From: Escherichia coli
GTDB taxonomy: Bacteria; Pseudomonadota; Gammaproteobacteria; Enterobacterales; Enterobacteriaceae
Direction: 5' to 3' (one strand)
Length of the DNA: 700 nt
Assembly: GCF_003334335.1 (NCBI RefSeq)
Contig: NZ_QOWQ01000155.1
Position 1 is the stretch's first letter; every line of letters starts with the position of its first letter. Positions 540 to 644 of this stretch are shown here, in pieces. A program made the translations under genes and the position numbers. The notes below the pieces were generated by a model. The model had not been told where the DNA came from. It was given only the letters and a program-made list of their open reading frames with translations, and ran no database searches.

Positions 540-631
540 GTTCATCCGCCTCATGTGATGAACTGCGTTTGAGGAAACGTAAAGTTACACTGTCCTGAAG
601 CCCGTGGCGTCACTGCTGCGGGCTTTTTTTT
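540..631 (+). ncRNA. Candidate small RNA (~90 nt) between the predicted promoter and the intrinsic terminator
   Basis: Promoter-like element at 525-533. 5' hairpin 539-564 (GGTTCATC / GATGAACT, 7 bp plus a G·U, 10-nt loop). Second small hairpin 566-579 (CGTTT-GAGG-AAACG). Unpaired stretch 580-597. Terminator hairpin 598-625 followed by U8. No plausible ORF with a ribosome-binding site in the interval. Hypothetical; no expression evidence. Confidence 0.25.
598..631 (+). terminator. Rho-independent terminator downstream of lom and immediately upstream of the stf ribosome-binding site
   Basis: AAGCCCG (598-604) pairs with CGGGCTT (619-625). The loop 605-618 can pair further (G607-C616, C608-G615 plus G·U wobbles) around a TCAC tetraloop. 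A run of 8 T follows at 624-631. The minus strand has no T-tract after the hairpin, so it is unidirectional for + strand transcripts. Confidence 0.6.
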
Positions 632-633
632 AT

Positions 634-640
634 GGGAGAA
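634..640 (+). promoter_or_regulatory. Ribosome-binding site (GGAG core at 635-638) for the stf-like gene
   Basis: GGGAGAA lies 6 nt upstream of the ATG at 645. Confidence 0.5.
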
Positions 641-644
641 ATCT

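Follow-up and report, generated by a model that had tools for sequence, protein, structure and literature searches.

A probable intrinsic terminator closing the lom moron unit upstream of the side tail fibre gene stf in an Escherichia coli prophage

What is the role of the hairpin and T-run that separate lom from the side tail fibre gene stf in an Escherichia coli prophage, and do they simply end the upstream transcription unit or act on the gene that follows? The stretch of DNA analyzed here, referred to as the window, is 700 nt long and is 99.9% identical to positions 564-1263 of AF151091.1, a partial sequence (11 kb, without the Q gene) of the P-EibA prophage of E. coli ECOR-9. The lom coding sequence starts 106 nt before the window (lom at 457-1056 of AF151091.1 corresponds to window -106 to 493), and its profile matches, which are to the OmpX / complement-resistance family and fall below curated cut-offs, are consistent with the Ail/Lom family. 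The Stf N-terminus of the window is encoded at 523 related loci. The depositors of AF151091.1 annotated three stem-loops, all of them downstream (after orf-191A, eibA, and eaaA), and the lom-stf hairpin is unannotated in that record; the features of the window are collected in Table 1. The P-EibA stf gene (L001 1208-2647) encodes a product with long collagen-like Gly-X-Y repeats, which push the local GC content to 0.65-0.72, and this product has sub-cut-off matches to models of the streptococcal Scl and Legionella Lcl collagen-like adhesins.

Table 1. Features of the lom-stf region, in window coordinates.
Feature	Position	Strand	Description
lom, 3' part (Ail/Lom-family outer-membrane protein gene)	1-493	+	stop codon TGA at 491-493
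lom-stf spacer, type 1	494-644	+	151 nt
Promoter-like extended -10, TGTTATAAT	525-533	+	no clear -35; predicted start about 539-541
Upstream hairpin, GTTCATC / GATGAAC	540-563	+	7 bp, perfect; 10-nt loop
High-conservation island	564-631	+	single-stranded GUUACACUGUCCUG plus terminator
Terminator stem-loop	597-626	+	stem 597-608 / 615-626, loop 609-614; 12 bp (7 G-C), 6-nt loop
U-tract, putative transcript end	624-631	+	eight T; read from the sequence
stf Shine-Dalgarno, GGGAG	634-638	+	6 nt before ATG; preceded by A632 T633
stf, 5' end (orf-401-like side tail fibre gene), MTVRISGVLKDGTGKPVPG...	645-700	+	ATG at 645; start as annotated in AF151091.1

The terminator that an earlier note on this DNA had described is present as claimed, with a bare hairpin of -20.0 kcal/mol followed by eight T. 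The core pairs of the stem (G600-C623, C601-G622, C602-G621, C603-G620, and G604-C619) are exactly those given in that note, and the first three T of the run also close the stem; the distance from the T-run to the ribosome-binding site, put there at 3 nt, is in fact two bases, a trivial difference. The stem begins 104 nt past the lom stop codon. A pattern scan of the plus strand of the window returned this as the sole site, at a loose threshold under which shuffled sequences give 0.5 +/- 0.6 sites per window, such that the scan alone is not significant. Positions 590-650 fold at -23.9 kcal/mol (z = -3.2), an energy equaled by one of 200 shuffles, and the hairpin pairs with probabilities of 0.9-1.0 in transcripts beginning at 400 (in lom), 494 (at the lom stop), or 540 (the putative start in the spacer). 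A T-run following the hairpin was also looked for on the complementary strand and none was seen, so the signal is one-directional. Among approximately 200 phage contigs, variation falls mostly in the loop (G609A, C611U), with a stem change in two single contigs, and the T-run comprises 6-8 T among type-1 variants. The locus thus combines a GC-rich stem, a U run, stability beyond that expected from composition, placement after a co-directional gene, and a conserved structure, as intrinsic terminators do. The hairpin is not a product of chance, and together with its U-run it is an ordinary, uncharacterized but conventional member of this known class.

We surveyed the regions upstream of stf at 80 loci encoding relatives of the Stf N-terminus, together with those of lambda, Rac, P-EibA, Sp9, and an O91 prophage, for a total of 85. 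In 84 of these regions (28 of the 29 distinct sequences) there is a hairpin with a tail of 4-8 T whose end lies 11-14 nt upstream of the stf start codon, and the scripted fold energies lie between -12 and -24 kcal/mol in 27 of the 28 distinct hairpin-bearing sequences. At one locus, L202, the scripted fold was anchored on the wrong T-run, and the hairpin (GCCCGCAGTTTTGCGGGC then CCTTTTGG) was read by eye. The sole locus that has no upstream hairpin, L183, also has a truncated and rearranged stf 5' end; unrelated sequence (..GAGGCGCTTACTGGCAGTCAGAATATCG, at about 1430-1530) meets the stf frame there at codon 2-3, which suggests a rearrangement or a truncated gene.

Three unrelated hairpin sequence families were found among the surveyed loci: the type seen in the window, after lom and in a 151-nt spacer (family 1); a lambda/Rac type, after lom and in a 64-nt spacer (family 2); and CGCAG[G/A]CCGG..CCGG[T/C][A/C]CTGCG, after a hok-like toxin gene or its decayed remnant (family 3). 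The families were compared by tabulated per-sequence folds rather than by formal covariation counts, which were given up because MAFFT cannot align unrelated stems by column. The closest relatives of the window in this respect are lambda (about nt 19,612-19,639) and Rac (lomR-stfR), in which a hairpin and T-run likewise follow the lom stop codon on the same strand, at about -20 kcal/mol, with the T-run ending 11 nt before the stf ATG. In lambda the lom-stf gap holds AGCCCGCCGGAACCGGTGGGCT and T6, then GTGGGGTGAATATG (stf), and the equivalent place in K-12 Rac holds AGCCCGCCGGTTCAGGCGGGC and T6. The flanking sequence is homologous (GTAACAC.. against GTTACAC..), and the outer stem AGCCCG/CGGGCT is common to all three, whereas the upper stems and loops differ from that of the window and are all still complementary. 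The additional ~90 nt of the window, which make up the first part of its spacer, hold the extended -10 and the upstream hairpin. Neither of the lambda records, J02459 and NC_001416, has a terminator annotated at the lom-stf gap, and a phrase search of the literature for a named lambda terminator at lom-stf returned nothing, nor did it return a paper testing one, while a literature search by locus tag gave nothing relevant; the t'J sites of Luk and Szybalski are presumably the candidate name for the lambda terminator at this position.

The genes found upstream of these hairpins indicate to which unit the structure belongs. At family 3 loci, J is followed by a 46-codon ORF, MSQKPLKTTVICITVVLIIWITHSSLCEFRFRIAGAEIAAFLQCKQ, in place of lom (for example at L153 1218-1358, and also at L130), and the 46-aa product matches the Pfam family Hok/Gef (PF01848, E 2.5e-11), with NCBIfam Hok models below cut-off. 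This hok/sok-type locus occupies the same J-stf slot as lom and ends in a hairpin and T7-8 abutting the stf ribosome-binding site, but its cargo is different and its hairpin (CGCAGGCCGG..CCGGTACTGCG) is unrelated. At another locus, L131, just a 184-nt remnant of the hok-like locus is present, and both ends of the remnant align to it. The occurrence of lom, a hok-like gene, or a decayed remnant between J and stf points to this junction as an exchangeable cargo slot, in which each cargo ends in its own hairpin and T-run. Moreover, at three loci (L129-L131) the Stf N-terminus is 99% identical to that of the window and TTTTTTTTATGGGAGAAATCTATGACAGTC is shared, yet the hairpin is of family 3; the same 99%-identical stf allele is therefore found behind hairpins of families 1 and 3, and the identity begins at the T-run. 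One stf allele behind two hairpin families places the hairpin with the upstream unit and a recombination joint at the T-run, and our comparisons indicate that the hairpin type goes with the upstream cargo, whether lom or a Hok-family toxin, and not with the stf allele.

Juhala et al. (2000) reportedly dealt with the moron transcription units of lambdoid phages. Like the lambdoid moron units reviewed by Cumby et al. (2012; PMC3594210), the cargo upstream of stf is a replaceable accessory gene of the late operon with a factor-independent terminator at its end; at the same site it is present in some close relatives and replaced or absent in others, and its own downstream terminator belongs to a hairpin family that tracks the cargo. 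Because the hairpin goes with the upstream cargo, the window fits the textbook moron, an accessory gene with its own terminator in a late operon. It appears to differ from the moron units in that no defining upstream promoter was found for the P-EibA lom and in that the base composition of lom is not clearly distinctive: GC content is 0.51-0.58 in lom, 0.44-0.53 at the end of J, and 0.55-0.72 in stf (where the collagen-like repeats drive it), and does not mark lom as foreign. No consensus promoter for lom was found in the J-lom gap, which is 67 nt long in AF151091 and contains a terminator-like hairpin and no two-hexamer promoter. This second terminator-like hairpin with a T-run, between J and lom, lies at AF151091 408-427 and at lambda 18,920-18,935 (L002 421-436), in P-EibA and lambda alike about 20-30 nt before the lom start codon. 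The lom gene is thus bracketed by terminators, with scant room for the promoter that lysogenic expression requires.

We consider it likely that positions 597-631 form an intrinsic terminator which closes the lom moron unit and is overridden by the Q-modified late polymerase. In lambda, the late genes stf and tfa are transcribed from PR' by a polymerase that Q has modified and that resists intrinsic termination, and by analogy the signal in the window would be silent in lytic growth. Polymerase lacking antitermination, whether it had come through lom or had started at the promoter-like site at 525-533, would transcribe the GC-rich hairpin and the eight-U tract and release the RNA at about 626-631. 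With 2-7 nt still to go to the stf ribosome-binding site, RNAs terminated there could not encode Stf. During lytic growth, the Q-modified polymerase of the late operon would ignore this signal and run on into stf-tfa. The T-run is separated from the ATG by just 13 nt, too short a distance to accommodate a promoter for stf alone. Reviews describe morons as bringing a terminator with them (PMC3594210) and list cI, rexAB, lom, and bor, but not stf, as the only genes expressed in lambda lysogens (PMC7067206); expression of lom but not stf in lambda lysogens implies that lom transcription stops before stf. The lambda precedent suggests that lom expression, termination, and Q-dependent read-through would follow the same course in P-EibA. 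The suggestion in the earlier note that the terminator insulates lom from the tail fibre gene is in keeping with the position of the lambda and Rac hairpins, with the presence of a hairpin at nearly all surveyed stf loci, with the linkage of hairpin and cargo, and with the moron reviews. The locus would then be one more case of an accepted rule, by which accessory genes of late operons carry their own stop signal that is overridden by antitermination, and the comparison offers a practical aid to annotation, since almost all stf genes in the family are preceded by a terminator whose end lies 11-14 nt from the start codon.

Expression data from a related prophage bear on this arrangement. In prophage PP6 of EPEC E2348/69, which carries the type-1 spacer, lom and stf are both nearly silent in one published RNA-seq data set, with a DESeq baseMean of ~2 for lom versus ~7 for stf. 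Lysogenic expression is therefore not a property of every lom copy, and an insulator may have little to do in this strain under the condition sampled. Across the same stretch of PP6 (E2348C_1438-1441), the baseMean is ~17 for the tfa-like gene and ~205 for E2348C_1441. For O157:H7 Sakai, a Term-seq study has been published (PMC7547250).

The earlier note had also held that the same structure could act as a conditional attenuator of stf, and that sequence could not decide between the two; this was too cautious, since both the comparisons and the fold tests disfavor an attenuator, and comparative sequence favors a plain terminator. An attenuator or leader, in which transcripts from a spacer promoter are stopped or passed into stf upon a signal, might be suggested by the promoter-like site, which lies ~100 nt ahead of a terminator adjoining the stf ribosome-binding site, and by a weak Leu_leader-type Rfam match (15.8 bits against a gathering score of 50), which reflects only the shape of the terminator. 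The same holds for the Rfam scan of the window at E <= 10 as a whole, in which no match exceeded 16 bits, where the gathering scores are 39-60, and the sub-threshold matches overlap the hairpin. However, the terminator pairs at a probability of about 1.0 and no competing helix was found; blocking the 3' strand of the stem leaves the 5' strand nearly unpaired at a cost of 14-16 kcal/mol, and nascent RNA up to 612 likewise leaves the 5' half of the stem unpaired. No leader peptide is conserved, the ORF of 10 codons at 500-532 being exclusive to the P-EibA variant, and a search of the spacer for a sensor element (leader peptide, aptamer, or protein-binding repeat) found none, the repeats in it being the two hairpins only. 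Furthermore, lambda and Rac keep the terminator in a spacer that has no space for a promoter or leader, and Stf is a virion component required solely during lytic growth, a stage at which its transcript comes from the late operon. Nothing points to a regulated switch, and the attenuator is extremely unlikely; the comparisons and the folding energies together allow it to be left aside. It is also very doubtful that the hairpin acts chiefly within the late mRNA, by setting stf translation or protecting the downstream message, rather than as a terminator. The fixed distance of 11-14 nt from T-run to ATG across three unrelated hairpin families could be read in this way, as could the minimum-energy fold of 590-650, which pairs UCCU at 593-596 with 633-636 and so touches the Shine-Dalgarno; yet the fixed distance is more simply explained by a shared T-run-plus-RBS segment belonging to stf, the added helix has 4 bp, set apart by a 7-nt internal loop, and lambda does not conserve it, and 6-8 U directly after a stem are the signature of termination and not of a translational operator.

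Two further explanations concern the spacer upstream of the stem and the unusual conservation of the region. The promoter that the earlier note had placed upstream of the terminator stands in part: the perfect extended -10 (TGnTATAAT) is real and rare by chance, with 0.01 expected per window and an occurrence in 3 of 200 shuffles, but a two-hexamer scan reports no promoter because there is no recognizable -35. Across lineages the -10 occurs as TGTTATAAT, TGTTATGAT (the commonest), and TGGTATAAT, and it is lost (TGCAATGTA) in L168. In a comparison of four lineages, identity is 97-100% over 564-596 and 89-100% over 597-631, as against 47-86% in lom, 60-87% over 525-539 (the -10 region), and 70-87% at the stf 5' end; the extended -10, which lies about 30 nt upstream of the 564-631 island, is no better conserved than its flanks and is absent in one lineage. 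In the upstream hairpin, pairing is kept through one-sided changes only (A-U to G-U), and there are no double compensatory changes. Because the unpaired stretch 564-596 is 97-100% identical, the island appears to be conserved beyond the needs of a terminator, which may reflect a further function or a recent spread through recombination. One such function would be that of a prophage regulatory sRNA of ~92 nt (about 540-631), originating at the 525-533 promoter or cut from the lom 3' UTR, with the hairpin above all as its terminator, a role compatible with insulation; we regard this as unlikely. It is rather unlikely that the island and the extended -10 together make up an unrecognized sRNA, either of ~92 nt or longer and processed out of the lom 3' UTR. 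Beyond the rarity of the -10 motif, the layout of a 5' hairpin, a conserved single-stranded stretch that could serve as a seed (564-596), and a terminator with a U8 tail would suit an sRNA, 564-631 is the best-conserved stretch across the whole lom-stf region, the spacer is widespread in E. coli, and Hfq-bound sRNAs are known from prophage late regions (PMC4104026; PMC8550237; bioRxiv 10.1101/2025.11.27.690950). Set against this, besides the lack of a -35 and the poor conservation of the -10 region, the 63 Hfq-CRAC candidates of EHEC Sakai, for which the filter required >100 bp from a CDS, do not include it, and it is absent among the entries listed in the EPEC RIL-seq hub and new-sRNA tables; it has no Rfam match, and the unpaired stretch has no complementary site within the 11-kb P-EibA record, where it matches only itself. 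It is quite improbable that the sequence persists as a conserved linker at a module boundary, where mosaic lambdoid phages often recombine through homology, and not for an RNA function. The same stf allele does stand behind different hairpins, with breakpoints at the T-run, different lom alleles precede the same 564-631 island, and an IS200-type element is inserted in the T-run at L051; exchange alone, however, leaves unexplained why three unrelated hairpin and T-run sequences occur at one place, and why the upper stem changes in lambda and Rac while complementarity stays.

If real, the sRNA would occur in roughly 30% of E. coli genomes, in prophages such as Sp9 of O157:H7, PP6 of EPEC, and those of ST131/ExPEC, and the terminator would double as an Hfq-binding 3' end. 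The conserved stretch upstream of the stem matters only if it is part of an expressed RNA, and it is the sole lead here with some novelty. Several known RNAs resemble the spacer in that PasB, HnrS, AgvB/AsxR, and 24B_1 are short intergenic units of lambdoid late regions that end in intrinsic terminators, and each was considered and rejected as its identity. PasB looked promising, as it lies among structural genes and is common in ExPEC; in PP6 of E2348/69 its place is between I and J, on the opposite strand; HnrS/EcOnc10-12 lies about 19 kb away in Sp9; and AgvB and AsxR are both downstream of PR'. The RNA 24B_1 is reported in the lom-downstream gap of phage Phi24B, on the other strand and in an unrelated 428-bp region without a predicted terminator, and no Phi24B-type phage was matched by the spacer. 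A small-ORF reading of the spacer was likewise rejected, given that the frame at 500-532 is not conserved and a 43-codon frame on the minus strand (551-682) overlaps the stf start.

Of 5426 complete E. coli genomes, 1657 have the 151-nt spacer at an identity of about 87% or higher. Carriers include O157:H7 Sakai Sp9 (NC_002695.2 1,798,916-1,799,066, plus strand), EPEC E2348/69 PP6 (NC_011601.1 1,470,637-1,470,787, plus strand), IHE3034, and ST131 strains. A search with a 20-mer from the island against one genome per species returned one match, on a 4.3-kb contig of a 'Collinsella' MAG. This contig (L212; JAIJJM010000250.1, 4,349 bp, Collinsella sp.) is identical to the E. coli type-A lom-spacer-stf arrangement over the 240 nt inspected and is most likely a mis-binned E. 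coli prophage fragment; being identical, the match adds no divergent homologues and no extra covariation.

Mosaic breakpoints cluster at the T-run, as does the insertion at L051. On this viral contig, at about 6350-6900, the T-run is followed, in place of stf, by a CCCCAGCTAGGCTGGGGG hairpin and an ORF that starts with MGNEKSLAHTRWNCKYHIVFAPKYRR, an N-terminus that we take to be that of an IS200-type element.
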